Notes: generated from the sequence alone by a model not told the origin. Positions 42,715 through 64,000 are shown, counted from the stretch's first letter. The stretch is DNA of 64,000 nt from Kofleriaceae bacterium (GCA_046597055.1 JBKJLC010000013.1:14117-78116), one strand, 5' to 3'. Numbers and translations are program-made.

Positions 42715-42791
42715 TCACCGACGGCCGACCGGCCTGGGGTCAACGTGCGGCGGTCCCAGCGCGGAGGCTGCCGCGAGCGCGCAACACTCGC

Positions 42792-43679: not shown

Positions 43680-43791
43680 CGTTTCTACATAAGGCGCAGC
43701 GTCGCGCCTCGCCAGCCCCTGGCAGCTCTCCACGCGTATAGATCGCGTCAAGATTTCGCGGCGCTGATCGAGCGCCTCTGCGGCTGGCGGC

Positions 43792-45249
43792 TCAAGGCGG
43801 CGAAGCCGGTGCAGCCGGTGCGGGTCGAGCTACCGTTCGGGCGGGCTGGGCTCCCACGCCCGTGCTGGCCTGGCCAGATAGCAACACGGGAACACCGACA
43901 CCGCCGGGTTCCTCGAGGAACCCGGGCCGTGGGCCGATCCCGTCGCCACCGGGCGCGGGCTCGCCGGTGGGCCGGCGGTCGATCCGCGACCGGACCACGA
44001 GCGCCCAGAGCAACAGCACGCCGTTGAGGCCCGCCATCAGCACGAACGGCCCCGTCGGCGACCAGCGATCGAACAGGTGGCCGCCGACCTTGGTCGCGAC
44101 CAGGATCCCGAGCGCGCCGAACAGGCTGAACACCCCCAGCACCGCGCCACGGGACGCGGCCGGCGCCTGCTGACCGATCAGGACCTGGCTGGTGATCAGC
44201 GCGCTGATCTCGCCGACGCCGACCAGGCAGACGGCTGCGATCATCGCGCCGCCGGTCGGATCGGTGACCAGGCCGACCGCGCCGTACCCGGCGGTGGCCA
44301 GCGCCAGCGCCACGCACAGGGCGCCGACCCGATCGAGCCGATCGGCCAGGTAGCCGATCACCGGCGCCCACACGAACGCGGCGGTCTGCGAGATGCCGGC
44401 GATCATGCCGCCGGTGGCGAGCGCATCGGCCGCGCTCATCCCGTGCAAGGCGCCGTGGCGCTGGGCCCACAGCGTCAGGAACGTGCCGACCACGACGAGA
44501 TCGCCGCGCGAGACGAACGCGGCCGCGTACGCGAGCGCGACCACCGGATCGCGGCCGGCGGCGAAGCCGGCCCGGGCCATGGCCAACAGGCGCGGCCGGG
44601 TCGCGACCGGCTCGGGCTCGCGCCTGACCAGACCGCGCGCGACCAGGAGCGCGGCCAGCACGCACAGGCCGGCGACGGCGCCATAGGTGATGCGCGCGGC
44701 CACCACCGGCGTCATCCCGCGCCCGGTCAGGATCGCGGGCAGGCGGGCCAGCACGAACAGGGTCACCAGCACCCCGAGCCCGTTCATGATCCCCATCATC
44801 CCGGTCGCGCGGCCGCGATCGGGCTCGGCCGGGTAGTCGGCGATCACCGCGCCGAGCATCGCGGTGACGCACGCCGCGCCGACCGCGTAGACCGCACGCA
44901 GCGCGGTCAGCTCGCCGACCGTGCCCGCCATCGGGTACAGCACGTACGCGAGCCCGAGCACCATGAAGCCGGTCGCGTAGATCGCGCGCCGCCCGATCCG
45001 GTCGGACAGCACCCCGGCCGCGAGCACGACCGCGATGATCACCAGCTCGCTGACGAAGCCGAGGTGGCCGGACACCCGGCCCTGCTCGCCGAGCGGCACG
45101 TGCAGGAGCTCGCCCAGCACGAACGGCTGCGCGAAGTTCATGAACGTCATCAGGCCGGTCGACGCGAGCGCGGCGACGTAGAACGTCACCATGGCGCGAC
45201 GCGTGATGCCCGGGTTCAACCGGACCCGTCCGAGGCGGGCGGCCGGCAT
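43792..45249 (-). CDS. MFS transporter
   Basis: About 12 TM; GVLSDRIGRR, IADYP...RGRA, GYLADRLDR; 2 nt downstream of the FG-GAP gene. Confidence 0.9.
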   Translation of the reverse strand: MPAARLGRVRLNPGITRRAMVTFYVAALASTGLMTFMNFAQPFVLGELLHVPLGEQGRVSGHLGFVSELVIIAVVLAAGVLSDRIGRRAIYATGFMVLGLAYVLYPMAGTVGELTALRAVYAVGAACVTAMLGAVIADYPAEPDRGRATGMMGIMNGLGVLVTLFVLARLPAILTGRGMTPVVAARITYGAVAGLCVLAALLVARGLVRREPEPVATRPRLLAMARAGFAAGRDPVVALAYAAAFVSRGDLVVVGTFLTLWAQRHGALHGMSAADALATGGMIAGISQTAAFVWAPVIGYLADRLDRVGALCVALALATAGYGAVGLVTDPTGGAMIAAVCLVGVGEISALITSQVLIGQQAPAASRGAVLGVFSLFGALGILVATKVGGHLFDRWSPTGPFVLMAGLNGVLLLWALVVRSRIDRRPTGEPAPGGDGIGPRPGFLEEPGGVGVPVLLSGQASTGVGAQPARTVARPAPAAPASPP

Positions 45250-45251
45250 GG

Positions 45252-46619
45252 TCAGTGGGTGAACACGTAGACGATGTTGTCCTCGTAGCCGGTGACCACG
45301 GTCTCGCGGTCACCGTCGCCGTCGAGGTCGGCGATCGTGACGCCGCCGGCCTGGCCGAGCCCGGCCTGCAGCACGTGGCTGGCGAACTGCCCGGGCGCGG
45401 TCTGCTCGAGGAAGTAGACGTTCTCGTCGCCATCGCCGGACACCACCAGATCGGCGTCGCGGTCGCCGTCCATGTCGCCGACGCCGAAGATGCCGGGTGC
45501 GCCCATCCGCGCGAAGCCCATGTTGGCCCGCGACACGATCGTCGAGGAGATCTTGGTCTTGGTCCACGGCTGGCGCGGATCCGCGCCGGGCGTGAACACC
45601 GCGATCGCCGACTCCGGGTCGGTCGTGACGCTGGCGGTGTTGGTGTGGTTGGCGCCGACGTACCGGCGCACGCCGTCGCCATACAGGTCGTCGACCGCGG
45701 TCATCATGATCGCCGCGCCCATGTCACCGTTGACCGTGTGGCGGGTCCAGGTCCCGGCCGGCGCGGCCGACGACGGCGCGCCGGTCCGCTCGAACCAGAC
45801 GAACGACGGGGCCACGAAGAACTGCGCGCTGGCGACGTCGAGGTCGCCGTCGCGATCGACGTCGACCGCCCGCGGGTAGCTGCCGCCGCCGGCGCCGATG
45901 ACCCGGGCGGTGGTCTCGAACCGGACGCCGGTGGTGATGCCCTTGAACCAGCGGGTCGACGCGCTGCCGCCCCCGGGTCCCCCGGCCGCCTCGCCGGTGG
46001 TCAGCAGATCCTTGACCCCGTCGCCGTCGAGATCGACCAGCGTGACGTGGTGGTAGAACATCGTGTCGCCGAGCGGGACGACGTCACGGCGGATCCAGCC
46101 GGCCGCGGTCTGCTCGTACCAGCCGAGGCCGCCGCAGGGCTGGCCGCCCGGGACCGCCTGGCAGACCAGGAAGCCCGACGGGACGAACACGTCGAGGTCC
46201 AGATCGCCGTCGACGTCGGCCAAGGTCGGCTGGCCCGGGTACTTGAGGTGGGCCGAGGGCGGCACGATCGACGTCTTGGTCCAGGTCGCGAGGTCGGCGC
46301 CGCGCGTGTACATCGCCACCTCGCCGTCCGGGATGACAGGCCCGGCCATCACGCCGAAGTGCGAGACCACGACCTCGACCCGACCGTTGCCGTCGAGATC
46401 GCCGACCGCCGCGTAGGCCGGCCCGGTGGCGGTCCCGTCGATCGTATGACGGCTGAACGTGGGCGTGGCCGCGTCCGGACTGGCGTCAGGACTGGCGTCG
46501 GCCGCCGGCGCGTCGGGTGGCGCGGCGTCGAGCGACGCCGCGTCGGTAGAATCGGAGTCGCCATCGCCGCAAGCGGCAACGACGACCAGCGTGGTGACCA
46601 GGAACCCCAGATGCTTCAT
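45252..46619 (-). CDS. FG-GAP/VCBS beta-propeller lipoprotein
   Basis: VAAC lipobox; DA-rich linker; DLDGNG/DVDGD/DLDGDG/DVDRDG/DMDGD repeats. Confidence 0.87.
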   Translation of the reverse strand: MKHLGFLVTTLVVVAACGDGDSDSTDAASLDAAPPDAPAADASPDASPDAATPTFSRHTIDGTATGPAYAAVGDLDGNGRVEVVVSHFGVMAGPVIPDGEVAMYTRGADLATWTKTSIVPPSAHLKYPGQPTLADVDGDLDLDVFVPSGFLVCQAVPGGQPCGGLGWYEQTAAGWIRRDVVPLGDTMFYHHVTLVDLDGDGVKDLLTTGEAAGGPGGGSASTRWFKGITTGVRFETTARVIGAGGGSYPRAVDVDRDGDLDVASAQFFVAPSFVWFERTGAPSSAAPAGTWTRHTVNGDMGAAIMMTAVDDLYGDGVRRYVGANHTNTASVTTDPESAIAVFTPGADPRQPWTKTKISSTIVSRANMGFARMGAPGIFGVGDMDGDRDADLVVSGDGDENVYFLEQTAPGQFASHVLQAGLGQAGGVTIADLDGDGDRETVVTGYEDNIVYVFTH

Positions 46620-46652
46620 AGAAACTCCCTGCGCAGACTTTGTTGACCAGGC

Positions 46653-47363
46653 TCACCAGGGGTGAGACTGGCGATCGCGAAAAAACCCACCGTGCGGCCC
46701 GCCGTCGGGCGCGGTGGCCAGCCAGACAATCGTGTCGGCGCCGTCGGCGGCCGAGCGGGGCGCGCCGTCGCCGCCGAGCTCGGTCCGGCACCAGCCGGGC
46801 GCGGCGGCGTTGATCAGCACACCGGTGCCGGCCAGCTCGGCGGCCAGGAACACGGTGACCGCGTTGAGCGCGGCCTTCGAGGTGCGATAGCCGAGCGTGG
46901 TGCCGGTGGTGGCGCCGGTCAGCGCGCCGAGCTCGCTCGACACGTTGACGACCCGGCCCCAGCCGCGCTGGACCATGCCCGGCACCAGGCGCTGCGCGCA
47001 CGCGAGCGCGCCGACCACGTTGGTGTCGAGGGTGCGGCGGACCACGTCGAGCCCGACCTGCAGGCCGGGCACGAACTTGTCGAGCGCGACCCCGGCGTTG
47101 TTCACCAGCACGTCGACCGCCCCGCGCTCGGCCTCGATCGCGGCGGCGGCGGCGTGGACGCTGACCGGATCGGTGACGTCGAGCAGGCAGCCCGAGACCT
47201 CGAGCCGCTCGCCGCGCAGCACGCTCACCGCACCGTCGAGGTCGGCGCGCCGACGGGCGCCGATCACGACGTGCAGCCCGGCCCGGGCCAGGCCCCGCAC
47301 GACCTCGAGCCCGATGCCGCGGTTGCCGCCGGTCACCAGCGCGGTGCGGCCGGCGGCGGTCAC
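46653..47363 (-). CDS. SDR oxidoreductase (carbonyl-reductase-like)
   Basis: TGGNRGIG, VNNAG, VNVSS, YRTSK, PGWCRTELGG. Confidence 0.92.
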   Translation of the reverse strand: MTAAGRTALVTGGNRGIGLEVVRGLARAGLHVVIGARRRADLDGAVSVLRGERLEVSGCLLDVTDPVSVHAAAAAIEAERGAVDVLVNNAGVALDKFVPGLQVGLDVVRRTLDTNVVGALACAQRLVPGMVQRGWGRVVNVSSELGALTGATTGTTLGYRTSKAALNAVTVFLAAELAGTGVLINAAAPGWCRTELGGDGAPRSAADGADTIVWLATAPDGGPHGGFFRDRQSHPW

Positions 47364-48343
47364 GGTGCCGTCCCCTGCAGGTTGGCGCCCAGCACCAGCT
47401 CGCCTGCCTCCCAGCCCAGGTGACCGTAGACGGTCTGGCGCCGGCCGCTGGCGTACAGCTCCCACACCACGGCGAGGCCATGATCGTCGTCGATCAGGAA
47501 GTCGCGGCCGCGGATCCGCAGGGCCTGCCCGAACCCGTGCAGCGACGTGTACAGCGCGCGGCCGTAGCCACGGCCGTTGCCCCAGAGATCCGGGCCGTCC
47601 CAGGTGTGGCGGTCACCGACCCGCGAGCGCACCGCCCGCCAGCGCGCGGTCACCGCGCCCTCGAGCGTGATCGTGGTCTCGGCGCGCAGCAGCGACAACG
47701 GCCGGTGCTCGATGCGCGCGGCGGTGACGCCGATCCGGGCGCCGTCGTGGTCGTGGACCACGAGCTCGCCGGTCCACTGGCCGGCGTGCTTGAACGGCAA
47801 GACGTGGCTGCGCGCACCGGCCACCCGCTCGGCCGCACAGAACTCGTCGACCGCGGCGGCATCGGCGGGATCCGTCAGCTCGCCCTGGCGGTAGAGGCCG
47901 TTGAAGACCGCGACCAGGGTCGGCCCCTCGTGCAGCAGCGACGAGTAGACCTGCCGCCGCGCGCCGTCGGGCAGGGTCACGACGTGGACCTGCGTGCGCA
48001 GATCGGCCTGCCAGCCCGGCGCGTAGTAGTGCGCGTCGACCACGTCGCCGCACGGTTGCCCGGCCCCGACGAAGTCGGGACCGAGGTAGATCCGGTCGCG
48101 CTCGCCGTCGCGCACGCCGAACGCGAACGAGCCCGCCTCGAGCCGCGCCCGGAGCGGGCCGCGCACGTCGATCGAGGTCGCCATCGTGTACAGGGTGCCG
48201 CCGTCGATGGCCGTGCTGGCCCGGCTGACCTTCATGTGGCCGACGTGGACGCCGTCGGCGTCGAACACCGACGGCACGCCGTGCCAGTCGCCAGCGATCT
48301 GGCGCTGCCAGGCGGACGGTGCGGGTTGAGCAGGTGCGGTCAT
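47360..48343 (-). CDS. Two-domain calycin-like beta-barrel protein
   Basis: AGDWHG..VFDADG and AGQWTG..VHDHDG domain starts; beta-strand-rich. Confidence 0.6.
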   Translation of the reverse strand: MTAPAQPAPSAWQRQIAGDWHGVPSVFDADGVHVGHMKVSRASTAIDGGTLYTMATSIDVRGPLRARLEAGSFAFGVRDGERDRIYLGPDFVGAGQPCGDVVDAHYYAPGWQADLRTQVHVVTLPDGARRQVYSSLLHEGPTLVAVFNGLYRQGELTDPADAAAVDEFCAAERVAGARSHVLPFKHAGQWTGELVVHDHDGARIGVTAARIEHRPLSLLRAETTITLEGAVTARWRAVRSRVGDRHTWDGPDLWGNGRGYGRALYTSLHGFGQALRIRGRDFLIDDDHGLAVVWELYASGRRQTVYGHLGWEAGELVLGANLQGTAP

Positions 48344-49191
48344 GATGGTTCTCCCTCGGGGTGAAGGCTGAGCACGTCGATCGCGTCGACGCGCTGGTCG
48401 CGGAGGTGGCGGCGGATCGCGCACCGGGTGCGCGTCGCGGGATCGACGACCTCGAGCATCTCGAGCCCACGCCCGCTGCCGGACGCGAGCTCGAGCTCGA
48501 GGACGTGGCCGTAGCGCAGCCCGGCCCCGGTCAGCGCCTCGGCGCCGGCCCGGGCCTGGGCCCGGCAGCGGCCGCTGCCCGGCTCGGCCGCGAGCGCGAG
48601 GGTGAGGGTGGCGCCGTCGCTGGTGGACTCGTGCCAGCACCCGGCATGGTCGAGCTGGCCGGTCACGCCCGCCTCGCCGCGCGGCGCGCCGTCGGGGCCG
48701 AGCCGGCGGATCACGCCGCGCCAGGTGGTCGGCAGCGGCCGGGTCGCGGCGGGCAGCTCCGGCGCCACCGCCGGGACCCCGACCCCGGCGATCAACGCCA
48801 GCAGCCCGGGTCCGGTGGCGAACCGGCCGCCGGTGAGCTGACGATCAGGCGCGATCAGGAACGCCCACGACGTGAACGTCCAGCCGAGCGCCGGCCAGCA
48901 CCCGCGGCCCATCATCGCACCGCCGCCGAGCGTGAGCCCGTGGCCGATCACCGCCGGGCCCAGGTAGCGGCGGTGGGCGCCGTCCTTGCGCAGCACGAAC
49001 TCGTGGTGCCCGGCGAACCGCGCGAGCGGGTGCGCCGCCAGCGCGGCCTCCGGCTGGTTGTCCTGGATCACGCGGACCGCGCCGTCGGGCTCGGCCTGCA
49101 GCCGACGCACCTGCGTGATCGCGCCACACCGCCGGCCCTCGCCGTCGAACACGGTCTCGCGCACGTGCCACGCGCCGCCGAACGGATCCAT
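48340..49191 (-). CDS. Two-domain calycin-like beta-barrel protein (divergent)
   Basis: GGAWHV..VFDGEG and TWRG...LGPDG; RRYLGP shared with neighbouring genes. Confidence 0.55.
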   Translation of the reverse strand: MDPFGGAWHVRETVFDGEGRRCGAITQVRRLQAEPDGAVRVIQDNQPEAALAAHPLARFAGHHEFVLRKDGAHRRYLGPAVIGHGLTLGGGAMMGRGCWPALGWTFTSWAFLIAPDRQLTGGRFATGPGLLALIAGVGVPAVAPELPAATRPLPTTWRGVIRRLGPDGAPRGEAGVTGQLDHAGCWHESTSDGATLTLALAAEPGSGRCRAQARAGAEALTGAGLRYGHVLELELASGSGRGLEMLEVVDPATRTRCAIRRHLRDQRVDAIDVLSLHPEGEPS

Positions 49192-49194
49192 CGA

Positions 49195-50136
49195 TCAGCC
49201 CGGCTCGAACCGGAGCACCCCGTGCTGGGTCCCGATCCGCTCCTGCCCGCGGTAGATGTTGTGGACGACCGCCTTGACGGTGCCGTCGTGGCTCACGACC
49301 TCGCGCCGCCACCAGCGCAGGCCGGTGCCCAGATGATGGAGCTGACCCGACAGCGCGCGGCCGCCGGCCAGGCTGTACGAGCCGCACAGCGGGCCGGGCC
49401 CGGACCACGCGCTCCAGCCGTCGGTCACGAACGTCGCCGCGCTCGGCTCGGGCGCGAGCAGGCCGCCGTCGAGGTGCAGGTGCACGCGCTCGCCGTCGCG
49501 CTCGATCCGCTCTCGATAGGCGGCCTCGCCGGTCGGGGTCAGGCCGCCGTCGGTGGTGACCAGCCGGCCGGTCCAGCTTCCGCGCCGGTGCACGAGCAGC
49601 TCGCCGCGGCCCGCGGCCGGATCGGCGGCCAGATCGATCGACGCTCCGTCGACGAACCCGGGCACCAGCGGCGCGTCGCCGTCGGCGCACGGCCGGACCC
49701 GGTGGTGCTCGCCGACCACGACATAGACCAGCTGCTCGCCGCGCGACAGCAGCGCGAGCGACAGCTGCCGCTCGCCGCCGGGCAGCACCATCAGGAAGAA
49801 CCGCTGGGTCAGCCCGACCGAGGTCCAGTAGTGGTCGGCCTGGACGACGTGCTCCCCGAGCGCCTCGGCGAAGCCCTGGTTGAGCGGCCCCTCGTAGCGG
49901 CGGTGACGGCCGTGATCCGCGATCACGTAGTGGCCGGCGAACTTGAACGGGCCGGTGAACGCGAGCTCGATGCGGGTCCGGCCGGCGCCGAGGTCGGTGG
50001 TGACGAACCGGCGATCGACGCCGTTGCCGAGGAAGCGGCCGTCGCCGCCGTAGACCTCGGCGGTGCCGCGCCACTCGCCGGCCAGGTTGCACAGGCCGCC
50101 GCCGCGGGCCTCGGTCGGCTCGTCGAGCGTGGTCAC
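49195..50136 (-). CDS. Two-domain calycin-like beta-barrel protein
   Basis: AGEWRG..VYGGDG and GSWTG..TTDG; RRYEGP; GTGA coupling. Confidence 0.6.
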   Translation of the reverse strand: MTTLDEPTEARGGGLCNLAGEWRGTAEVYGGDGRFLGNGVDRRFVTTDLGAGRTRIELAFTGPFKFAGHYVIADHGRHRRYEGPLNQGFAEALGEHVVQADHYWTSVGLTQRFFLMVLPGGERQLSLALLSRGEQLVYVVVGEHHRVRPCADGDAPLVPGFVDGASIDLAADPAAGRGELLVHRRGSWTGRLVTTDGGLTPTGEAAYRERIERDGERVHLHLDGGLLAPEPSAATFVTDGWSAWSGPGPLCGSYSLAGGRALSGQLHHLGTGLRWWRREVVSHDGTVKAVVHNIYRGQERIGTQHGVLRFEPG

Positions 50137-50969
50137 GACGGCTCCGGTGCGCACAGCGTGATCGTCTCGAGGTCGCCCGGCGCCTCGCGCAACGCGGCCT
50201 GCACGTCCGCGTCCGGCGCGACCGGCCGCAGCCAGCGGCCCGCACAGGTGATCGTCAGCGGCGAGCGGCTGAACGGATACGGCGCGACCTCGTACACGCC
50301 AGGCCGCCGGGGCCGGACCGTGATCGTGGTGTCGCAGCCGGGCTGGAGCGGGACGTGCGCGAACGTCGCGACCGCGCGGTCGGCCGCGGCGGTGCAGTTG
50401 AAGTACAGCGCCAGCGTGTCGAAGAACTGCAACAGCTTGTAGTTGTGGAGCAGCGCGCCGTCCTCGGCCCACGGCGCGGTGGCCGGATCGGCGGCGAGCT
50501 GCGCGCGCAACCGGGCCTGACGCTCGAGCTGGCCGGCCAGCATCGCGTCGACCGCGGGCCGGTGCTCGGGCGCGATCTTGTCGATGAAGATCCTGTCCGA
50601 CAGGCCATAGCGGCCATGGAACAGCCCCCAGGTGTGCATGCTCGACAGCAGGCCGCACAGCGGGTGCACCGCGGCGTTGAGATCGGGGCCGAGCTCGCTC
50701 GATCGGAGCAGCGCGGGCAGCGGCGTCGACACCAGGTTCCACGGCAGGCCGGTGGCCGGATCGCGCTCCAGCTCGGGATCGACCGCATCCCAGCCGCGAT
50801 CGTGCTCGAGCACGAGCTGCTCGAGCAGCCGGCGCGGGCTCAGGCTCGCCACCGCAGGGTTGCCCCACGCCGACGCGAGCTGGCCCGCGACCCGGGCGTG
50901 CTCGCGCTGGGCGATCACGAACCGCGGCCCGTCGAGCGGCGCGCCGGTTGTGGCGGCCTGGACGATCAC
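50133..50969 (-). CDS. DUF3891-like protein (His/Asp motifs, HD-like)
   Basis: IAQREHARVAGQLA..WGN, EHDRGW, LLSSMH, LLQFFDTLALYF, VAPYPF. Confidence 0.75.
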   Translation of the reverse strand: MIVQAATTGAPLDGPRFVIAQREHARVAGQLASAWGNPAVASLSPRRLLEQLVLEHDRGWDAVDPELERDPATGLPWNLVSTPLPALLRSSELGPDLNAAVHPLCGLLSSMHTWGLFHGRYGLSDRIFIDKIAPEHRPAVDAMLAGQLERQARLRAQLAADPATAPWAEDGALLHNYKLLQFFDTLALYFNCTAAADRAVATFAHVPLQPGCDTTITVRPRRPGVYEVAPYPFSRSPLTITCAGRWLRPVAPDADVQAALREAPGDLETITLCAPEPS

Positions 50970-53012: not shown

Positions 53013-53017
53013 CGAGA

Positions 53018-53470: not shown

Positions 53471-53473
53471 GGG

Positions 53474-55497: not shown

Positions 55498-56927
55498 GGG
55501 GTCACCTCGATGCGCGCCCACTTCAGCTCGGTGAAGTGCTCGATCGAGTAGCGCCCGCCCGAGCGGCCGATGCCCGACAGGCCGCGGCCGCCCACCGGCG
55601 CGATCGCGCCCGACTGGAACGAGTGCATGCCGAGATGGACCGCGCCGGCCCGGATGCGGCGCACGCAGGTGAGGCCGCGCCGGAGGTCGTCGGTGACCAC
55701 CGCGGCGGCCAGCGCGTACGCGCTATCGTTGGCGGCCGCGATCGCCTGGTCGAGATCGTCGACCGCGACCACGCTCACCACCGGGCCAAAGGTCTCCTCG
55801 CGCCAGGCCCGGCAGGTCGACGGCGGCTCGACGAGCACGGTCGGCGCCAGGGTGCGCGGCCCGAGCCAGCGGCCACCGACGCCGAGCCCGGCGCCGGCCG
55901 CGATCGCCTCCTCGACCTGGCCGCGGATCTTGGCCACCGCGCGGTCGTCGATCACCGGCCCGTACGCGGTGCGCTCGTCGCGCAGGTCGCCCAGGTGCAG
56001 CGCGGCGCACCGGTCGATCAGCGCGGCGAGGAAGCGCGGATAGATCGGGCGCTCGACGATCAGCCGGCTCGACGCCATGCAGATCTGGCCGGCGTGGGCG
56101 AAGCCGCCCTCGACCGCGATCGCGGCGGCGCGCACCGGATCGGCGTCGCGCAGCACCAGCAGCGGGTTCTTGCCGCCCAGCTCGAGCTGCAGGCGGGCCA
56201 GCCTCGGTGCGGCGGCGGCCGCGATCGCGCACCCGGTCGCGGTCGCGCCGGTGAACGCGATCCCGTCGACGTCGGGGTGGGCGGCCAGCGGCGCGCCGCA
56301 GCCCGGGCCATCCCCGGTGACCACCGCCAGCACGCCCGGCGGCAGGCCGGCCTCGGCGAACAGCCGGGCCAGCGCCAGCGCGCACAGCGGGGTGTGCTCC
56401 GACGGCTTGACCACCACGGTGTTGCCGGCCGCGAGCGGGAACGCGAGCATCTTGGTGAGCAGCGCGACCGGGGCGTTGAACGGCGCGATCACCGCGACCA
56501 CGCCGAGCGGCTCGCGCAGCACGAGCGACAGCCGGTCGGCGCGGTCGTCCGGAAACGTATCGCCGTGCAGGCGACGCGCCTCGCCGGCGGCCGCGCGCAG
56601 CAGCTCGACCGCGTAGGCCAGCTCGCCGCGCGCCTTGGTGATGGTCGAGCCCGACTCGTCGATCAGCAGGTCGAGCAGGCGGGCGACCCCGTCGGCGGCC
56701 AGCCGATCGGCCATCGCCAGCAACACCCGCTCGCGCGCGCCGCCGGCGAGCCCGGCCCAGCCCGGCCACGCCCGCCGGGCCGACCCGACCGCGCGGTCGA
56801 CGTCGTCGGGGCCGCCGCGCGGGACCGAGCCGAGCACGCGATCGTCGGCCGGCGCGGTCACGACCATCCGCTCGCCCGACGCGGCCGGCTGGACCTCGCC
56901 GCCGATCCACAGCTGGCCCTCGATCAC
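55494..56927 (-). CDS. Aldehyde dehydrogenase (aromatic-aldehyde-type)
   Basis: IAPFNAP, KPSE, FTGA, LELGGKNP, GQICM, EETFGPV. Confidence 0.93.
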   Translation of the reverse strand: MIEGQLWIGGEVQPAASGERMVVTAPADDRVLGSVPRGGPDDVDRAVGSARRAWPGWAGLAGGARERVLLAMADRLAADGVARLLDLLIDESGSTITKARGELAYAVELLRAAAGEARRLHGDTFPDDRADRLSLVLREPLGVVAVIAPFNAPVALLTKMLAFPLAAGNTVVVKPSEHTPLCALALARLFAEAGLPPGVLAVVTGDGPGCGAPLAAHPDVDGIAFTGATATGCAIAAAAAPRLARLQLELGGKNPLLVLRDADPVRAAAIAVEGGFAHAGQICMASSRLIVERPIYPRFLAALIDRCAALHLGDLRDERTAYGPVIDDRAVAKIRGQVEEAIAAGAGLGVGGRWLGPRTLAPTVLVEPPSTCRAWREETFGPVVSVVAVDDLDQAIAAANDSAYALAAAVVTDDLRRGLTCVRRIRAGAVHLGMHSFQSGAIAPVGGRGLSGIGRSGGRYSIEHFTELKWARIEVTP

Positions 56928-58111
56928 GCGCGCGCCTCCAGCAGCGAGGTCTGCAGCAGGAAGCGCCGGGCCGCGGCCGGATCGGCGGCGATCGCGGCCA
57001 GCTCGCGATCGCGCGCGGCCCGCTCGCCCGCGTCGCGCGCCACCAGCGATTGGTAGTTGCGCGCGGCGTCGCGCTGCACGCCCTCGACCGCGGCGCGCCG
57101 GCGCCGGGTCGCCCAGGCGTCGAGCCGGAGATCGCCGTCGACCGCCTGGTCGAGCCGCGCCGCCAGGGGCCCGACCAGCCCGGCCGCGTCGTGGATGCCC
57201 GAGTTCATGCCGAGCCCGCCGGCCGGGTTGTTGACGTGCGCGGCGTCGCCGAGCAGCACGACCCGGCCGACGCGGAACCGCTCGGCGACTCGCTGGTGCA
57301 CGGCGTACGACGAGCGCGCGAGGACCGGCGGGGCCGGCCGGCCCAGCAGCCGCGCCAGCCGTGCCGCCAGCGCGTCGTCGGTGAGCGCGGTCGCGACGTC
57401 GGCGTCGGCGGCCAGCCGGAACACCACGCGGACCCGATCGCGGAGCGACATCACGATCACCCACTCGTCGGGATCGAACACGTAGGCGACCGGTCCGATG
57501 CCGGGGAACACCCGCTCGAGCGCCAGGTCGTCCGGCGCCAGCGCGCACAGCAGGAACCGGTCCTCGTTGGTCGCGCCGGTGAAGCTCAGCCCGAGCCGCT
57601 GCCGCACGGTCGAGCGGGCGCCGTCGGCGGCGCACAGGAACCGGGCGCGCTCGGTGTGGCGGCCGCCCGCGGTCTCCACCTCGACCGCGACCTCGTCGCC
57701 GTGCTCGGTCGCGTCGACCACCCGGTGGCCGAACCGGATCGCCGCGCCCCGCGCGCGCGCGGCCTCGAGCAGGATCGGGGTGACCTCGTGCTGCGGGCAC
57801 TGCAGCCGGAACGGGAACCGGGTGTCGCCCGCGATCAGCGCATAGGGCAGCTCGGCCACGCAGGTCCGGGTCGAGCGCTCCCAGAACTGCAGGCGATCGA
57901 CCTGGGCGCCGCGCGCGATGATCGCCTCGGCCACGCCCCATTGGTCGAGCAGCTCGAGGCTCGAGGGGTGCCAGGTGCTGGCGCGGGCGTCGGCCGACAC
58001 GGTCGGCTCGGCCTCGAGCACCAGCACGCCGAGGCCGCGATCGGCCAGCCCGAGCGCGAGGGTCAGGCCGACCGGCCCGGCGCCGGCGACGATGACGTCG
58101 TGGGCGGTCAT
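56924..58111 (-). CDS. FAD-dependent monooxygenase (group A, MhpA/PHBH-like)
   Basis: GAGPVG, ADGARSTVR, GDAAHVNNPAGGLGMNSGIHDA. Confidence 0.92.
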   Translation of the reverse strand: MTAHDVIVAGAGPVGLTLALGLADRGLGVLVLEAEPTVSADARASTWHPSSLELLDQWGVAEAIIARGAQVDRLQFWERSTRTCVAELPYALIAGDTRFPFRLQCPQHEVTPILLEAARARGAAIRFGHRVVDATEHGDEVAVEVETAGGRHTERARFLCAADGARSTVRQRLGLSFTGATNEDRFLLCALAPDDLALERVFPGIGPVAYVFDPDEWVIVMSLRDRVRVVFRLAADADVATALTDDALAARLARLLGRPAPPVLARSSYAVHQRVAERFRVGRVVLLGDAAHVNNPAGGLGMNSGIHDAAGLVGPLAARLDQAVDGDLRLDAWATRRRRAAVEGVQRDAARNYQSLVARDAGERAARDRELAAIAADPAAARRFLLQTSLLEARA

Positions 58112-59562
58112 GGCCGCCCTGCCCCGACCGTGGTCACCCGCGCGCCGCGGAAGTGCTCGAAGGTCTCGACCACGCCCTCGTCGCCGAGGCCCGACAGCCC
58201 CCAGGCCGGCCGCACCGCCAGCGGATGCGCGCTGGTCAGGCTGAGCCGGTTGACGTTGACCATCCCGCACCGGAGCGCGCGCCCGACCCGCGCGGCGTCG
58301 GGCTCGGGGCCGAACACGTACGCGGCCAGGCCATACGGCGAGTCGGCGGCGCACCGGGTCGCCTCGGCGGCGTCGGCGACCTCGTGCCAGGTCGCGACCG
58401 GCCCGAAGATCTCGTCGCGCGCGCGCGCCGGCGCGACCCCGGTGATGAGCGTCGGCGCCACGAAGTAGCCGTCGAGCGCCGGCCGCCGGGTCGGCGCGTG
58501 AGCCTCGCCGCCGGCCCCGACCAGGCGCGCGATCGCGCGGGTGACGGTGTCGCGGTGGGTCGCGTGCGCGAGCGGGCCCATCTCGCTGGCCGGATCGATC
58601 GCCGCGCCCAGCCGCAGCCCGGCCAGCCGCTCGAGCACCGCCGCGAACAGCGCCGCCGCGATCGGTCGGGCGACGATCACGCGCCCGACCGCCCGGCACC
58701 ACTGGCCGTTGAGCGTGGTCAACCCGGCGACCAGCGCGACCGCCGCCGCCTCGACGTCGGCACCGTCCAGCACGACGAACGGATTCGAGCCGCCCAGCTC
58801 GAGCTGGGCCGGCTTCATCGCCGGCGCGCAGGCCAGCGCCACCGCCCGGCCCCCGACCAGCCCGCCGGTGAACGACACCACCGCGGTGCGCGGATCCCCG
58901 ACCAACCGGGCGCCGACCCGACCATCGCCGTGGACCAGCGCGAGCGCGCCGGCGGGCAGGTGCGGCGCCGCGCACTCGACCAGCACCTGGGCCGACAGCG
59001 GCGCGTGCTCGCTCGGCTTGAGGATCACCGGGCAGCCCGCCGCCAGCGCGCTCGCCAGCTTGTGGGCCGCGATCGCGGTCGACGCGTTCCACGGCGCGAT
59101 CACCGCCGCCGGCCCGCGCGGGAGCCGCTCGATCTCGCAGGTCGCCCCGACTGCCGGCAGCGCCCGCGCGTCGGCGCGGGTCACCGCCAGCTCGGCCGCG
59201 ACCCGAAAGCAGCGGGCCGCGACCTGGGCCAGCACGCGGGCCTGGTCGAACAGGATGCCGGTCGTGATCGCGTCGATCCACGCCAGCTCGTCGAGCCGGC
59301 GCTCGATCGCCGCCGCGGTCGCGTCGAGCGCGGCCGCCCGGTCGGACGGCGGCGCCCAGCCGTTGCGATCGAGGTCAGCCGCCGCGGCCAGCGCGGCCTC
59401 CACCACGGCCTCGTCGCTGTGGACCTGCGCGACCAGCCGCGCGCCGGTCGACGCGTCGCACAGCCAGGCGTCGGCCACCGCGGGCGAGGTCGACCACGCG
59501 CCGGCGACGTACGCGCGCGGGGGCGGCAGCGGGTGCGGCGTCCGCGACGGGCTCGTGGTCAT
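58108..59562 (-). CDS. Aldehyde dehydrogenase (divergent)
   Basis: IAPWNA, KPSE, SFTGG, LELGGSNP, NGQWC, EIFGPV. Confidence 0.9.
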   Translation of the reverse strand: MTTSPSRTPHPLPPPRAYVAGAWSTSPAVADAWLCDASTGARLVAQVHSDEAVVEAALAAAADLDRNGWAPPSDRAAALDATAAAIERRLDELAWIDAITTGILFDQARVLAQVAARCFRVAAELAVTRADARALPAVGATCEIERLPRGPAAVIAPWNASTAIAAHKLASALAAGCPVILKPSEHAPLSAQVLVECAAPHLPAGALALVHGDGRVGARLVGDPRTAVVSFTGGLVGGRAVALACAPAMKPAQLELGGSNPFVVLDGADVEAAAVALVAGLTTLNGQWCRAVGRVIVARPIAAALFAAVLERLAGLRLGAAIDPASEMGPLAHATHRDTVTRAIARLVGAGGEAHAPTRRPALDGYFVAPTLITGVAPARARDEIFGPVATWHEVADAAEATRCAADSPYGLAAYVFGPEPDAARVGRALRCGMVNVNRLSLTSAHPLAVRPAWGLSGLGDEGVVETFEHFRGARVTTVGAGRP

Positions 59563-60134
59563 GACCGGAACACCTCGGTCGCGACCCGGGGCGCGTGGAC
59601 CGGCCCGTCGGCGCCACGCGGATCCCACGCGACCCGGCGATCGGCCTTGTCCGCAACCCGGACACCGTGGGCGGTCAGGGTCCGGACCAGCACGCCGTCG
59701 CGGTAGAGCGCGGTGCTGCGCACCCGCGCCGATCGGTCGATCAGCCGCACGCAGTCGGGCTCGGCGTAGCGCGACCAGGCCGGCGTGATCCGCCGGCCGA
59801 CGAAGTACAGGATGCCGGCGCCGGCCGAGACCCCGACGTGCTCGGGATCGTCGGGCCCGAGCGCATCGAACGCGAGCACGCCGCCCTGCAGCCGACCGGT
59901 GAAGCTGCGCACGTGCAGCGGCCGGCCGCGGGTGGTCACGTTGGTCTGGCGGTAGATCTCGCCGTCGAACTCGACGTAGACCAGGTTCTCCCACGGCGAC
60001 GGCCCGGGCGTGCCCGACGCCTCGTCGGCGGGGAGCGGCTGACCGTCGAGCGCGAAGACCTCGACGTGGTCGCGCCAGACCCCGGCCATCGCGGTCAGGG
60101 TCTCGGCGACCGAGCTGCCGATCGCGCCCGTCAC
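59559..60134 (-). CDS. Single-domain calycin-like beta-barrel protein
   Basis: MAGVWRDHVEVFALDG N-terminus; beta-strand-rich; 4-nt overlaps on both sides. Confidence 0.55.
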   Translation of the reverse strand: MTGAIGSSVAETLTAMAGVWRDHVEVFALDGQPLPADEASGTPGPSPWENLVYVEFDGEIYRQTNVTTRGRPLHVRSFTGRLQGGVLAFDALGPDDPEHVGVSAGAGILYFVGRRITPAWSRYAEPDCVRLIDRSARVRSTALYRDGVLVRTLTAHGVRVADKADRRVAWDPRGADGPVHAPRVATEVFRS

Positions 60135-61414
60135 GGGGTGCCCTTCGCCGCGGTGCCGAACAGCGCCTGCTCGCGATCGGTGAGCAGCATCCGCGCCGCC
60201 TCGTGGCGACCGCGCTCGGCCGGGAACGCCTGGACCAGGCCCATGGCGAGGTCGCGCACGCCGCGCGCCTCGACGGTGCGGTTGCCGGTCGCGCTGGTGC
60301 CACCCGACTTGAGCGCCGCCAGCCCGACCCGGAACGCGGCCTCGCACACCTCGCCCTTGCAGAGCCGCCACTGCCGGACCACGTCGGCCTTGCCGACCAG
60401 CGGTGGCTCGCTGGTCTCGAGCTCGAGCTGGCGGCGCAGCCACAGGAGCGCGGTCTCCATGTCGACCGCCATCCGCCCGATCAGCTCCTGGTGGTGCGCG
60501 CTCTCGCCGACCGCGCGGCCGGTGTCGGCGAACCGGGCCCGGGTCACGCCGTCGAGCGCGTGCCGGTACACCGCCCACGCCGTCCCGGCGTAGACCGCGG
60601 TCGCCGCGAGCTGGTTGCCGACGAAGCTGCCGCGGCTGACCTCCATCATGCGGCGGAAGGCGCCCGGCACCGCCAGCGCGTCGACGTCGTCGCACGGCAC
60701 GTCGTCGAGCACGAGGCCGTGGGTCGCGGTCGCGCGCATGCCGAGCGCGTCCCAGCGCGCACGCTCGCGGAGGCCGACCGCGTCGCGCGCGACCAGGAAC
60801 AGGCCGAGGTCGTCGACGCCACCCGAGCCGCCCGCGATCCGCGCGGTGACCAGGTAGTCGTCAGCGACCCCGGTCGCGCACCCGAACGACTTGGTGCCGG
60901 TCAGCCGCCAGCCGCCGCTCACCCGACGCGCCTCGGTCGTGATCGTGATCGCGCTGCCCTCGGTCTTGGTCGATTCGCTGGCGAAGTTCGCGATCCACCG
61001 GCCGCGGGTGCCCATGCGCGCCAGCAGCCGCTCGGCGAAGTCGCGGACCCGCGGGACCTCGGCGTCGGGGTACTTCCCCGCCGCGATCGCCTCGAGCGGC
61101 AGCAACCCACGCGACGCGCTCGAGCAGTGGAAGAAGAACGCCAGCGCCGTCGATGGACACGCGGTGCCGAGCGCGAACGTCGCGCCGGCCAGGTCGCGCA
61201 GGCCCCCACCCAGGCCACCGTGCTCGACCGGGACCACCAGGCCGAGCAGCCCGGCCTCGCGCAGGGCCGCGACGTGGGGCAGGTGGAACTCGCCGCGCGC
61301 GTCGGCCATCACCGCCGCCTCGCGCAGCACCGGCAGCACCGCGTCGACCCGCGCCGCCCGCGCCCGCTCGGCGTCGGACATGCGCTCGACCAGCACCTCG
61401 GCGACCGCGGTCAC
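60131..61414 (-). CDS. Acyl-CoA dehydrogenase-fold flavoprotein (possibly group D monooxygenase-like)
   Basis: GLLGLVVP.EHGGLG, CPSTAL, GWRLTGTKSFGC, WDALGMRATATH, R.VRD. Confidence 0.85.
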   Translation of the reverse strand: MTAVAEVLVERMSDAERARAARVDAVLPVLREAAVMADARGEFHLPHVAALREAGLLGLVVPVEHGGLGGGLRDLAGATFALGTACPSTALAFFFHCSSASRGLLPLEAIAAGKYPDAEVPRVRDFAERLLARMGTRGRWIANFASESTKTEGSAITITTEARRVSGGWRLTGTKSFGCATGVADDYLVTARIAGGSGGVDDLGLFLVARDAVGLRERARWDALGMRATATHGLVLDDVPCDDVDALAVPGAFRRMMEVSRGSFVGNQLAATAVYAGTAWAVYRHALDGVTRARFADTGRAVGESAHHQELIGRMAVDMETALLWLRRQLELETSEPPLVGKADVVRQWRLCKGEVCEAAFRVGLAALKSGGTSATGNRTVEARGVRDLAMGLVQAFPAERGRHEAARMLLTDREQALFGTAAKGTP

Positions 61415-62157
61415 GCCGCGCCTCGCTTGAGCAGGTCGCGCATCCGGGCCGCGACCGGCTCGCCGACCAGGCGCGCCACCTGCGCCCACACCGCGTCGAC
61501 CGCGGGATCGAAGATCGCGTCCTTGCTGCGCTGGTCGCGCTGCGCCAGCCCGGCCCGGTCGACGCCGTCGAGCCCGGCCGCCGGCACGCCGGCTTGCACC
61601 AGCGCCAGCCAGTGATCGAGGTATCCGTTCGCGACCGGGCCGAGCGCGCCGAATCCAGCCTCGTCGGTCCGCTGGACCAGCATCCACGGCGACATCAGCG
61701 CGTGCTGGCGCGGGCCGATCTTGGCCGGGGTCCAGCCCGGCGTGCCGCGCGCCGCCTCGAACCGCTCGGTCAGCGGCTCGAAGACCTGGTCGATGTAGGC
61801 GAGGTGGGCGCCGAGATCGACGCGCGGGATGAGATCCAGATGGAACGCGTAGCCGCCGCCGGCGAAGACCGCGTCGAGCGTGTAGTGCGGCACCGCGCTG
61901 TCGGGCCGGGTGAACGCGAACACCATGTGCGAGTCGAGGCCGAACGCCGGCACCGCCAGCTCGATCGTCACGAGCTGCAGGAGCTGTGGGCCGGTGAACA
62001 CCCGCAGGCCGCCGACCGGCGCGCCGGCGACCGGGCCGGCCAGCCCGACCAGCGGGACCAGCGCCCCGCCGGCGTCGCCGTGGACCTCGACCAGCCCGAG
62101 CGTGGAGACGATGCGATGGCGGACGTGCGCCGCCAGCGTGGCAGGGAGGGAGCTCAT
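61411..62157 (-). CDS. Second RCCR/bilin-reductase-like protein
   Basis: LDSHMVFAFT.PDSAVPHYTLD, FHLDLIPRVDL, ALMSP, YLDHWL, LAQRD; same framework as 51427-52221. Confidence 0.7.
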   Translation of the reverse strand: MSSLPATLAAHVRHRIVSTLGLVEVHGDAGGALVPLVGLAGPVAGAPVGGLRVFTGPQLLQLVTIELAVPAFGLDSHMVFAFTRPDSAVPHYTLDAVFAGGGYAFHLDLIPRVDLGAHLAYIDQVFEPLTERFEAARGTPGWTPAKIGPRQHALMSPWMLVQRTDEAGFGALGPVANGYLDHWLALVQAGVPAAGLDGVDRAGLAQRDQRSKDAIFDPAVDAVWAQVARLVGEPVAARMRDLLKRGAA

Positions 62158-63266
62158 TTGACCACCTTCAGCGGCGGGGCCTCGGGCATGACCCACGACG
62201 CCGGCGCCGCGCCGGCCTCGCGGCGGCGCGGCGAGCCGATGACGACGGCGCCGTGCCCCTGGTTGTCGGTCCGGATCGCCGAGGCGTCGATGCCCCAGCC
62301 GCGATCCAGGTAGCGCTTGCGCAGCTGGCGATAGGCGATGCCCATCGCGTCGGAGCGGAGGTGAAGCTCGGCGGCGAGGTCGTACGGCAGCTGCTCGGGC
62401 CGCACGCCCTCGACGGTCGGCTGATCCTCGAGGAAGATCTTGTTCACCCGCCGGCGCGAGTCGCGGTCGGCCCACCGGCCGGTGAAGAAGTTCCGGTACT
62501 GCACCCACAGCGTGCGGGTGGTGTGCTCGTCGACCGGCACGTTCGAATCGATGATCACCGTGCGCCAGCGGCCGAGATCGAGGTCGAGGCGGGTGAGGTT
62601 GGGCATCATCACCGCGACCGACGCGGTGACCGGCGACCGCTTGCGCCGCAGCAGCTTCCACAGCCCCTTCGGCGGCGGCGGCATCAGCGAGGTCGTCGCC
62701 GAGCAGCTCCACGCGTCGGTGGTGACCTCGTGGTCCTCGATCTCCGGGTGGTCGGGGTTGCCGAACGAGTTGCGGTGCACGAACGGCGTGTGCGCGATGT
62801 CGACGCCGTTCTCGACCACCCGCGCGTAGTGCGCGTTCCAGGTGAACTCGCCGCGCAGCGCGCGCCAGCCGGGCTGATCGGCCTCGGGGATCACCGGGAT
62901 CGGCGGCCGCTCGGCCTCGGGCAGGTCGCCCATGAACACCCACACCCACCCGTAGCGCTCGACGACGGGGTAGCTGTCGACCTTGGCGCGCGCGGGGATC
63001 GGCGAGCCCGGCCGCGCGGCCGGGATGCGCACGCACGCGCCGTCCTGCGCGTACTGCCAGCCGTGGTACGGGCAGACCAGGCAGCCCTTCTCGATCCAGC
63101 CGCCCGACAGCGACGCGCCCCGGTGCACGCACAGATCGCTGAGCGCGACGACCTGGCCGTCGGCGCCACGAAACAGCGCCAGGTCCTGACCGAGCAGGCG
63201 CACCTTGCGCGGCGCCGTGCCGATCGCGTCGGCCACCTCGCACGCGTACCAGAAGTTCTTCAGCAT
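62154..63266 (-). CDS. Rieske non-haem iron oxygenase (VanA/PaO-like superfamily)
   Basis: GAGGAG RBS; CVH...CPYH Rieske ligands; ENGVDIAHTPFVH mononuclear Fe motif; late IFLED. Confidence 0.93.
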   Translation of the reverse strand: MLKNFWYACEVADAIGTAPRKVRLLGQDLALFRGADGQVVALSDLCVHRGASLSGGWIEKGCLVCPYHGWQYAQDGACVRIPAARPGSPIPARAKVDSYPVVERYGWVWVFMGDLPEAERPPIPVIPEADQPGWRALRGEFTWNAHYARVVENGVDIAHTPFVHRNSFGNPDHPEIEDHEVTTDAWSCSATTSLMPPPPKGLWKLLRRKRSPVTASVAVMMPNLTRLDLDLGRWRTVIIDSNVPVDEHTTRTLWVQYRNFFTGRWADRDSRRRVNKIFLEDQPTVEGVRPEQLPYDLAAELHLRSDAMGIAYRQLRKRYLDRGWGIDASAIRTDNQGHGAVVIGSPRRREAGAAPASWVMPEAPPLKVVK

Positions 63267-63282
63267 CGCGGGCTCCTCTTGC

Positions 63283-63705
63283 TCATCGACATGGCCACTC
63301 AACCAACGTCTCGGCCGAGCCGCCGAGCGCCACCACCGCGACCTTGTAGGGGACGTCGCACAGCAACGGCTCGCCGCCGGCGGTGCCGCCGTGCTCGTGG
63401 GTTCCGTCCTTGGTGTCGCCGGGCAGCAGGCCGTACAGCACCGGTGACTCGAACCCGCCCGGGAAGCTGGTCGCCTCGACCACCCAGTACGGGTGGCCGT
63501 TCACGACGTCGTCGGGCCCGCCCGGCAGCACCGCGTCGGGTTCGACGAAGTACAGCCCCATCGCGTTCGACTCCTGCCAGCGCACCACCACGCCGCTGCC
63601 CGGCTCGCCCTCGATCTCGATCGCCTCGGGCGTCCCGCACGCACCGCAGCCACCGCTGGCGGCGCACGCCAGGCTCGCGATCCACTCGAACCATCGCTGT
63701 CCCAT
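63283..63705 (-). CDS. Hypothetical secreted protein/lipoprotein
   Basis: GGGAGG RBS; Cys-containing N-terminus; lies between operon genes. Confidence 0.65.
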   Translation of the reverse strand: MGQRWFEWIASLACAASGGCGACGTPEAIEIEGEPGSGVVVRWQESNAMGLYFVEPDAVLPGGPDDVVNGHPYWVVEATSFPGGFESPVLYGLLPGDTKDGTHEHGGTAGGEPLLCDVPYKVAVVALGGSAETLVEWPCR

Positions 63706-63730
63706 ACGTCCTCCCTTCACCCGCGCGCCG

Positions 63731-64000
63731 CTAGTAGCGCATCGAGATCCGCACCGACATCAGGGCGCGGGCGAGCTGGAACTTGGCCTTGCCGTACTCC
63801 GGCTTGCCGCTGCGAATCCAGTTGTTCGAAACCCCGCCACCCTCCTCGGGCGACGGGTATGGCACGTAGGACATGTCGAGCTTGCCGTTGAGGTTGCGGT
63901 CGTGGACGACCGCGACCGCGTACTCGTCGTGCGGCAGGTCCTTGAACGTCGTCGAGACCTTGCCGTTCTTGATCGCCACCTTGGCGACCCGGAACGCGCC
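63731..64000 (-). CDS. DUF2141 family protein (5' end outside the window)
   Basis: FKDLP...YAVAVVHD.N.NGKLD......P.EG.G.SNN...P....AKF. Confidence 0.85.
   Translation of the reverse strand, partial: GAFRVAKVAIKNGKVSTTFKDLPHDEYAVAVVHDRNLNGKLDMSYVPYPSPEEGGGVSNNWIRSGKPEYGKAKFQLARALMSVRISMRY

Follow-up and report, generated by a model that had tools for sequence, protein, structure and literature searches.

A widely conserved operon with Rieske oxygenase and RCCR-fold reductase genes in a Kofleriaceae bacterium, most likely a bacterial route for chlorophyll-type pigments

The plant PAO/phyllobilin pathway (PAO and RCCR/ACD2; PF08417 and PF06405; PDB 2zxk and 3aga) pairs a Rieske oxygenase with an RCCR-family reductase and ends at phyllobilins. 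A Rieske gene that adjoins genes for RCCR-fold reductases, mirroring PAO and RCCR (pathway as given in the accessible parts of PMC8621299, 10.64898/2026.03.19.712979 and 10.1101/2021.10.07.463469), is found in a stretch of 64,000 nucleotides from a Kofleriaceae bacterium (GCA_046597055.1 JBKJLC010000013.1:14117-78116, or G000:C77:14117-78116). This whole stretch, here called the window, extends to the end of contig C77. The genes in question belong to a real and widely conserved catabolic operon, which most likely constitutes a bacterial route for chlorophyll-type pigments exceeding that of plants. The two systems share the Rieske-RCCR pair, the lack of a dedicated ferredoxin in the unit, and an upstream esterase. 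In contrast to the plant pathway, the bacterial Rieske protein is of the VanA_C type and has no PaO domain, two divergent reductases are present (RCCRa and RCCRb, the latter without an equivalent of Glu154), no SGR was found in the host genome, and oxygenases, amidases and C-C lyases are added. Aerobic catabolism of tetrapyrroles is the probable function, with about two thirds of the weight on chlorophyll derivatives and one third on bilins.

The idea of RCCR/PAO-like degradation in bacteria is not new any more. RCCR-like genes were noted in Nostoc and Anabaena (PMC2716323, in the part available), and an 'SH-RCCR-type' degradation of chlorophyll a has been described in prokaryotes, with 1,193 structural homologues of RCCR, Actinomycetota foremost, and with the top matches of Shewanella acanthi lying within ~11 kb (10.64898/2026.03.19.712979, main text). 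An earlier reading of the window from its sequence only (the sequence-only reading) had known of no characterised full pathway; prokaryotic degradation of chlorophyll a is now claimed, but conversion was shown only to pheophytin/pheophorbide, with a hydrolase double mutant (10.64898/2026.03.19.712979, main text). The families of that system probably overlap those of the cluster here, and its RCCR-type taxa (Micromonosporaceae, Nocardioidaceae and others) overlap the taxa of RCCRa relatives. Its main text counts homologues per genome, does not separate the two reductase families, and mentions neither operon, gene cluster, synteny nor maleimide. A Shewanella acanthi orthologue was not recognised here: Shewanella is named neither for any of the best 120 (of 1,470) RCCRa relatives nor in 10 clusters. 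What this genome adds is the lower pathway, its co-occurrence with controls, and an operator lead. About 1.15 billion tonnes of chlorophyll are made yearly (10.64898/2026.03.19.712979). In the literature searched, with most subscription journals outside its coverage, neither a paper on this cluster or its lower pathway nor a description of the enzymes leading from the opened ring to small molecules was found. The cluster supplies candidates for each step, and their occurrence in culturable, non-pathogenic strains makes the question testable. Type strains that carry it include Nocardioides soli DSM 105498 (L013), Dactylosporangium aurantiacum NRRL B-8018 (L011) and Zhongshania borealis (L023).

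Gene calls from a codon-usage model place 22 minus-strand genes at 43792-64000, in agreement with the co-directional run that had been noticed before: at 14 of the 21 junctions the genes overlap by 4 nt (ATGA/GTGA), and gaps of 25, 16, 3, 5, 3, 33 and 2 nt separate them at the remaining seven. The run is thus real, but the operon is not complete in the window, where only two thirds of it lie. The last 117 bases of C77 (63884..64000) are repeated exactly at the beginning of contig C19 (locus L081) and at no other place in the assembly (94% completeness, 7.6% contamination), in which similar end overlaps are present at 201 of 606 contig ends. C19 contributes 11 further co-directional genes, nine of whose 11 junctions are 4-nt overlaps, one an overlap of 11 nt and one a gap of 22 nt. 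The joined unit comprises ~33 genes in ~32.7 kb. The host had been called myxobacterium-like, and 26 MYXO-CTERM matches in the genome are consistent with a myxobacterium.

RCCRb (51427..52221; minus strand, as are all operon genes below) belongs to the RCC_reductase family, with 38.6 bits against a PF06405 cut-off of 24.9, and its profile, built from 85 relatives, finds Arabidopsis RCCR at E 1e-21, PebB at 1e-5 and HY2 at 0.055. RCCRa (61411..62157) matches PF06405 weakly (16.6 bits, E 0.0047, short of the cut-off), and its profile has no significant match among PDB sequences. Its structure model (pLDDT 92) matches HY2, PebB, PebA, RCCR and PcyA at Z 21.8-23.8, with 226-235 residues aligned at a root-mean-square deviation (rmsd) of 2.5-3.1, and Foldseek ranks RCCR first (E 2.7e-11). 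The ten matches at Z >=8 consist of these five, PebS, PcyX, two coproporphyrinogen oxidases and one plastid-motor-complex chain, and the score falls to Z 5.5 at rank 11. The two families are homologous to each other (hhalign 99.2%). Both reductase-like proteins therefore have the fold of RCCR and the ferredoxin-dependent bilin reductases (FDBR), as the sequence-only reading had it, RCCRa by its model and RCCRb by its profile. Glu154 and Asp291 (numbering offset 43) are the active-site acids of RCCR. The invariant D233 of RCCRb aligns with Asp291, and its Ala110 with Glu154; RCCRa has invariant H77, D95 and D221, the two acids falling on the Glu154 and Asp291 positions when mapped only through RCCRb. 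A complex prediction for the Rieske protein with RCCRa scored 0.00, which gives no answer either way.

The RCCRa family counts 1,470 proteins at E <=1e-20 among 1,930 candidates, and that of RCCRb 433 representatives at E 0.001. In a quick tree (careful search unfinished, midpoint root), RCCRa forms a clade of its own (99), and a plant-RCCR-like clade picked by eye (100) lies on the RCCRb side; because forks on that side are below 95, no donor or order is claimed. Long, apparently algal proteins with transit-peptide-like N-termini (P0145, P0151, P0170 and P0176) match the RCCRb profile; RCCR was reported as absent from chlorophytes (10.1101/2021.10.07.463469, in the part available). All 12 RCCRb carriers in a sample of the genus Nocardioides have a second, more distant RCCRb paralogue ~18-25 kb away, making three RCCR-fold genes per island (L170:6573-7397; G007, G611 and G631 among others), and extra RCCRa-like copies are present in several carrier genomes.

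The same fold is found in the bilin reductases HY2, PebA, PebB and PcyA and in pre-PcyA clusters, which also occur in heterotrophs with globins nearby (PMC10151467 and PMC13446030, as far as their accessible text goes; RCCR relatives serve there as the outgroup of bilin reductases). Those enzymes are biosynthetic and act after haem oxygenase, whereas RCCRa and RCCRb side with RCCR in sequence and are found in a catabolic setting. The biosynthesis of a pyrrole- or bilin-derived pigment or natural product, for which FDBR-fold enzymes with globins in heterotrophs would be a precedent (PMC10151467, in the part available) and calycin-type cyclases such as OlmO another, is highly improbable here: no haem oxygenase, non-ribosomal peptide synthetase, polyketide synthase or precursor gene is among the 33 genes, and what the genes encode are hydrolases, amidases, lyases, CoA transferases and uptake systems, to which gammaproteobacterial loci add TonB receptors. 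It is unlikely, though less so, that the same catabolic design has already-linear tetrapyrroles or haem products (biliverdin, bilirubin, phycobilins) as main substrates, the reductases acting first and the Rieske enzyme hydroxylating or cleaving the reduced bilin. This reading falls within tetrapyrrole catabolism, and its probability is contained in that of the whole. The near tie of HY2, PebB, PebA and RCCR in structural comparison with RCCRa (Z within ~1), the likeness of the barrels described below to the bilin lyases CpeS and CpeT, a Rieske protein outside the PaO family, the Mg-dechelatase not found in the host or in 50 carriers (in a search where no control genome matched), and some gammaproteobacterial loci without a Rieske gene within 10 kb all suit bilins. 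RCCRb, however, is far nearer to RCCR than to PebB or HY2, the operon has no haem oxygenase, and the conserved serine esterase that stands between the RCCRb and Rieske genes in most loci suits a phytyl or methyl ester.

In the preferred reading, breakdown of chlorophyll-type pigments, the candidate ring opener is the Rieske oxygenase (62154..63266; VanA_C type by Pfam), whose metal ligands C46, H48, C65, H68, D156, H159, H164 and D281 are invariant in 42 sequences. Five beta-barrel proteins accompany it, none with a Pfam match. Barrel E (47360..48343), the core double barrel, matches the DUF3598 structure 2o62 at Z 19.2 (rmsd 3.8, 244 residues aligned) and BFA1 at Z 18.7, and its halves match nitrobindin (Z 12.8) and CpeS (Z 10.9), resembling CpeS/CpeT. 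It thus shares the calycin-type fold of these proteins, but at an identity of at most 12%, and a common barrel is no proof of function. The double barrels C (49195..50136) and D (48340..49191) are homologous to E by profile (hhalign 97%, and 82% at E 1e-5, respectively). The single barrels A (59559..60134) and B (50966..51430) gave no alignment with the barrel E profile and resemble DUF3598/CpeS by the language-model features of the ESM Atlas only (0.90-0.95). By these three kinds of evidence, all five barrels named in the sequence-only reading find a place with DUF3598/CpeS.

Conservation of the cluster was assessed with RCCRa, for which a search of GTDB genomes gave at least 112 confirmed relatives. 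The best 80 of these come from Actinomycetota, Chloroflexota, Gammaproteobacteria and Acidobacteriota, and within 10 kb of RCCRa their loci contain genes for the Rieske protein (72), barrel E (71), RCCRb (66), aldehyde dehydrogenase (66), the flavin adenine dinucleotide (FAD) monooxygenase (61) and the ACAD-fold protein (41). Families encoded on C19 are represented there by the isomerase fold (62), nitrilase fold (46), lyase (28), amidase (8), HMG-CoA-lyase-like enzyme (8), LeuCD (2) and cyclic amidohydrolase (2); barrels A-D and DUF3891 occur in 3-5 loci, and the DUF2141 protein, a 140-aa protein, the globin and the FG-GAP protein in none. Metagenome loci seeded with RCCRb (the 34 of at least 10 kb among the best 80 of 100) carry barrel E in 30, the Rieske gene in 29, RCCRa in 29, the nitrilase fold in 26 and CoA transferase in 17. 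The co-occurrence in other genomes that the sequence-only reading called for thus extends across phyla.

Co-occurrence of the lower-pathway genes was also compared with controls. Fifty carrier genomes, hand-picked for spread from the source genomes of the 80 loci, all have an amidase-like gene (36 within 50 kb of RCCRa), and 44 have a cyclic amidohydrolase (27 within 50 kb). In samples of two genera, this amidohydrolase is present in 5/5 RCCRb carriers vs 3/146 others and in 12/12 vs 5/109, or 17/17 vs 8/255 when pooled. RCCRb occurs in 3 of 400 other genomes of the host phylum and the cyclic amidohydrolase in one, itself an RCCRb carrier; the other two RCCRb carriers are among the top three matches to the isomerase-fold gene. 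One of these (G362) has most of the window and C19 genes in one cluster with shuffled order. Detoxification only, with phototoxic pigments bleached and exported and the downstream genes as unrelated neighbours, would agree with the role of plant RCCR (PMC2716323 and 10.1101/2021.10.07.463469, in the parts available), with an MFS transporter, lipoproteins and barrels that could sequester pigment, and with lower-pathway genes that differ among clusters. It is nevertheless quite improbable, as these genes are translationally coupled to the remainder, stay with the core despite shuffled gene order, and track RCCRb within genera.

The C19 part begins with a lipoprotein bearing a cutinase/PETase-type esterase domain with a GHSAG motif (C19 12566-10044; PETase and Abhydrolase_5 at E 2e-7, no PF07224 match) and a small lipoprotein (10047-9589). 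A secreted-looking hydrolase beside Streptomyces clusters (L079:2321-3289, minus strand; family in 9/80 loci) exceeds the cut-offs of both Chlorophyllase PF07224 (33.1 vs 26) and PETase. A lyase of the PEP-mutase/isocitrate-lyase family follows (9592-8726). It has the KRCGH active-site loop, is below the prpB cut-off, and matches petal death protein best in the PDB (205 bits, E 1e-59), then a phosphorylmutase-named chain (180), PrpB (175) and the dimethylmalate lyase Dml (159, E 1e-45). Petal death protein and Dml cleave 2,3-dialkylmalates. Next come a cyclic amidohydrolase (8729-7242) and LeuC-like (7245-6037) and LeuD-like (6040-5501) subunits of a DmdAB/homoaconitase-type hydratase, of which LeuD exceeds the TIGR02087 cut-off (143.5 vs 108.95) and LeuC reaches 378 vs 385 for NF001614; by score the pair belongs to the two-subunit aconitase family (LeuCD/DmdAB/homoaconitase), with its substrate role predicted. 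The remaining genes encode a maleamate-amidase-like enzyme of the isochorismatase family (5504-4881), a CoA transferase III (4884-3685), an HMG-CoA-lyase-like enzyme (3688-2783), a double nitrilase-fold amidase (2786-1074) and a protein of the maleate-isomerase/arylmalonate-decarboxylase fold (1084-335). In the last, the first site reads MGMSAE and has no Cys in any of 80 aligned rows, and the second reads QCGTNL, its Cys being one residue off the isomerase Cys but on that of arylmalonate decarboxylase.

Twelve bases before the first operon gene lies an operator-like near-palindrome (C19 12578), and a GntR-UTRA regulator gene (13237-14004) is divergent from the operon. For the motif TGTTAYRACAW, 161 loci gave 10 occurrences, where base composition predicts 1.7. 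Nine of them are outside the host genome: seven precede a cluster gene by no more than 260 nt, one runs into an estimated start, and the ninth has no such gene nearby; the host genome has two. The operator is a lead only, because the motif was derived after the data had been seen.

The window encodes further proteins, several of them candidates for the middle of the pathway. The ACAD-fold flavoprotein (60131..61414) is probably a two-component monooxygenase, since a flavin-reductase gene adjoins its counterpart in actinobacterial clusters; at L166:16796-18163 and L163:3588-4841, a flavin-reductase domain that continues in a long C-terminal part (HMGL-like match) directly precedes the ACAD-fold gene. 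The gene once labelled FMO does encode a flavin monooxygenase (56924..58111), but of the FAD_binding_3 aromatic-hydroxylase type. Two aldehyde dehydrogenases (58108..59562 and 55494..56927) keep the catalytic Glu and Cys motifs. Two alpha/beta-hydrolase-fold proteins (54604..55497 and 52218..53012) have His in place of the nucleophile at the elbow, GHHAG, where relatives of the first read GHH[TS]G. The DUF3891 protein (50133..50969) has invariant H24, H56-D57, H102, H112 and D184, an H-HD-H-H-D set of which five His/Asp positions are constant in 18 matches. It may carry an HD-type di-metal site, as these residues suggest, perhaps comparable to that of the HD-domain diiron oxygenases MIOX and PhnZ; a PDB profile search gave nothing significant. 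The CoA transferase III of the window (53474..54607) has succinate-glutarate CoA-transferase as its best NCBIfam match, below the cut-off (389 vs 750 bits). The truncated-globin lipoprotein (53018..53470) has Trp97 where the proximal His F8 is expected, and its one relative found has no His in the segment; it appears to lack the proximal His of haem-binding truncated globins. A short-chain dehydrogenase/reductase (46653..47363), an FG-GAP-repeat lipoprotein (45252..46619) and an MFS transporter as the last gene (43792..45249; closest NCBIfam MamH/MamZ, below cut-off) complete this part. Pfam and NCBIfam uphold the families that had been named for the Rieske, aldehyde dehydrogenase, ACAD-fold, CoA transferase, globin, GHHAG, dehydrogenase/reductase and MFS genes, and add DUF3891, DUF2141 and FG-GAP repeats.

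Gene content, folds, co-occurrence and the operator-like site were observed directly, and each chemical step of the following scheme is inferred from them. One GntR-regulated operon would convert tetrapyrroles, probably derivatives of chlorophyll from plant and algal detritus (pheophorbide/chlorin or already-opened phyllobilins), into central metabolites and ammonia. Surface lipoproteins and the MFS transporter would take up the pigment, and the cutinase-type esterase would strip phytol. The Rieske enzyme would then oxygenate the ring at the meso bridge, like plant PAO, and RCCRa and RCCRb would carry out a two-step reduction of the linear product with a housekeeping ferredoxin, so that conjugation and phototoxicity are lost, with the barrels holding or isomerising intermediates. 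Next, the two flavin oxygenases, the HD-type protein, the GHHAG proteins and the two aldehyde dehydrogenases may cut the bridges and oxidise pyrrole aldehydes to alkyl-maleimides, e.g. methyl-ethyl-maleimide and haematinic acid imide. The monopyrroles in which chlorophyll breakdown reportedly ends, by way of linear tetrapyrroles, include haematinic acid and methylethyl maleimide (PMC12860425, in the part available), and the lower-pathway genes of C19 fit the disposal of such compounds, which makes an independent chemical argument for pyrrole-ring disposal. The imide would be opened by the cyclic amidohydrolase and its ammonia freed by the isochorismatase-family and nitrilase-fold amidases. The resulting dialkylmaleate would be hydrated by the LeuCD-type enzyme and cleaved to pyruvate and a small acid by the isocitrate-lyase-family enzyme, or by CoA transferase with the HMG-CoA-lyase-like enzyme. 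As the diacid of haematinic acid imide is 2-methyl-cis-homoaconitate, hydration and cleavage would yield pyruvate and glutarate; such an intermediate suits a homoaconitase-like hydratase and a methylisocitrate-lyase-like enzyme, and glutarate fits the substrate class of the best match of the window CoA transferase.

In actinobacterial clusters, genes for PrpD, a CitE-type lyase and mesaconyl-CoA hydratase stand where the host unit has LeuCD, which indicates methyl-substituted maleate/aconitate chemistry. Six regions of 60-80 kb are larger islands with these three as well as cyclase, RidA, flavin reductase, thiolase and transport genes. The sequence-only reading had suggested algal or cyanobacterial prey as a source of pigment and iron as a possible gain. 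Both suggestions fare poorly: RCCRb is rare in the host phylum and most carriers found are Actinomycetota, which argues for detritus rather than prey, and the single haem oxygenase match of the genome is on another contig. A bolder version of the scheme combines a non-PAO Rieske opener, two sequential RCCR-type reductases, barrels as bridge lyases or carriers, a dedicated route from alkyl-maleimide to pyruvate and one GntR operator into the first complete bacterial mineralisation route for chlorophyll-type tetrapyrroles, with plant RCCR recruited from this bacterial family. We hold it to be plausible but tentative.

Several observations weigh against chlorophyll-type substrates. PF08417 is matched by none of 42 Rieske members at E 0.01, where all 42 match VanA_C, so that the enzyme is outside the PaO family, and its closest solved relatives are GxtA/SxtT, NdmA and DdmC. 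Glu154 is replaced in RCCRb. In 180 loci, a crude screen for motifs detected no gene for a small ferredoxin (its sole match was a Rieske fragment); nine Fer2 matches are in the host genome, all outside the cluster. The Mg-dechelatase SGR (PF12638) was found neither in the host genome nor in 50 carriers, in a search in which no control genome matched either. Among their best 60 PDB rows, the esterases match cutinases and PETases and no chlorophyllase. The esterase and dehydrogenase/reductase that belong to the core elsewhere (66/80 and 71/80 loci) have no orthologues in the host genome, the Rieske gene is out of reach in 8/80 loci (several of them short contigs), LeuCD is rare in related loci, and the genus samples each include the centre genome and count non-independent kin. 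The C19 isomerase-fold protein was rejected as a standard maleate cis-trans isomerase for want of the two Cys. The lower-pathway families all score below equivalog cut-offs, and they also serve nicotinate, purine and pyrimidine catabolism.

Some of these points suit an island that degrades an N-heterocycle other than a tetrapyrrole (an alkylated pyridine, pyrrole, indole or alkaloid) by a maleamate-type route, with RCCR-fold proteins repurposed as reductases or binders. The substrates of the nearest solved Rieske relatives are saxitoxin, methylxanthines and dicamba, one acid residue of RCCR is lost in RCCRb, and the amidase, maleate-isomerase-fold, DmdAB-like and Dml-like genes resemble those of nicotinate pathways. 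With nicotinate catabolism (NicF and NicE of the maleamate route, the 2,3-dimethylmaleate hydratase DmdAB and the 2,3-dimethylmalate lyase Dml) and petal death protein, the operon shares an isochorismatase-family amidase, the maleate-isomerase fold, a LeuD/DmdB subunit and a lyase. It differs in that the 33 genes include neither nicotinate hydroxylase nor 2,5-dihydroxypyridine dioxygenase, the first catalytic Cys is missing from the isomerase-fold protein, and PrpB scores about equal to Dml for the lyase. Such an island is rather unlikely, since every named FDBR/RCCR-fold enzyme among the structural matches of RCCRa acts on tetrapyrroles, each cluster has two or three RCCR-fold paralogues with up to five barrels resembling tetrapyrrole binders, and ~33 genes exceed the needs of one simple ring.

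Related loci show further variation. Five from marine gammaproteobacteria (L003, L004, L008, L023 and L051) have genes for a TonB-dependent receptor, nitrilase fold, RCCRa, ACAD-fold protein and aldehyde dehydrogenase, with neither Rieske nor barrel E within 10 kb, and may represent either a cluster in two parts or a sub-pathway for pigments already opened. The dehydrogenase/reductase that follows barrel E in most other clusters, of which the window gene is not an orthologue, is fused to an MFS transporter in nine proteins (P0213-P0221); it may resemble the chlorophyll b reductases NYC1/NOL, and among longer proteins it had 11 matches, none named NYC1. Neocarzinostatin-family apoprotein genes lie by ABC-type transport genes in actinobacterial clusters (L166:11503-12860, L164:7657-9587), and it is possible that they encode secreted pigment carriers.

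At the contig end, the window contains the 3′ part of a DUF2141 protein gene (63731..64000; Pfam and contig overlap), which starts on C19, and a gene for a 140-aa protein of no known family (63283..63705), possibly exported, with one relative (L083). Many long antisense open reading frames in the window were dismissed as high-GC shadows. No promoter-like or terminator-like site was found in 42500-47000. A co-directional SPFH/Band-7 gene (window:42792-43679, minus strand), 112 nt past the MFS stop, is not counted in the operon, and GC falls to 0.69 across 42001-44000. Farther on, translations suggest an ECF-sigma-like gene overlapping an anti-sigma-like gene (40104-41593, minus strand), beside a divergent gene presumably for a fasciclin-like lipoprotein (41719-42714, plus strand). 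Beyond the GntR gene (L081:14098-17074, C19), the cluster is flanked by an ankyrin-repeat protein gene and an open reading frame presumably related to ISKra4-type transposases; together with the patchy distribution, these hint that the cluster was gained horizontally.

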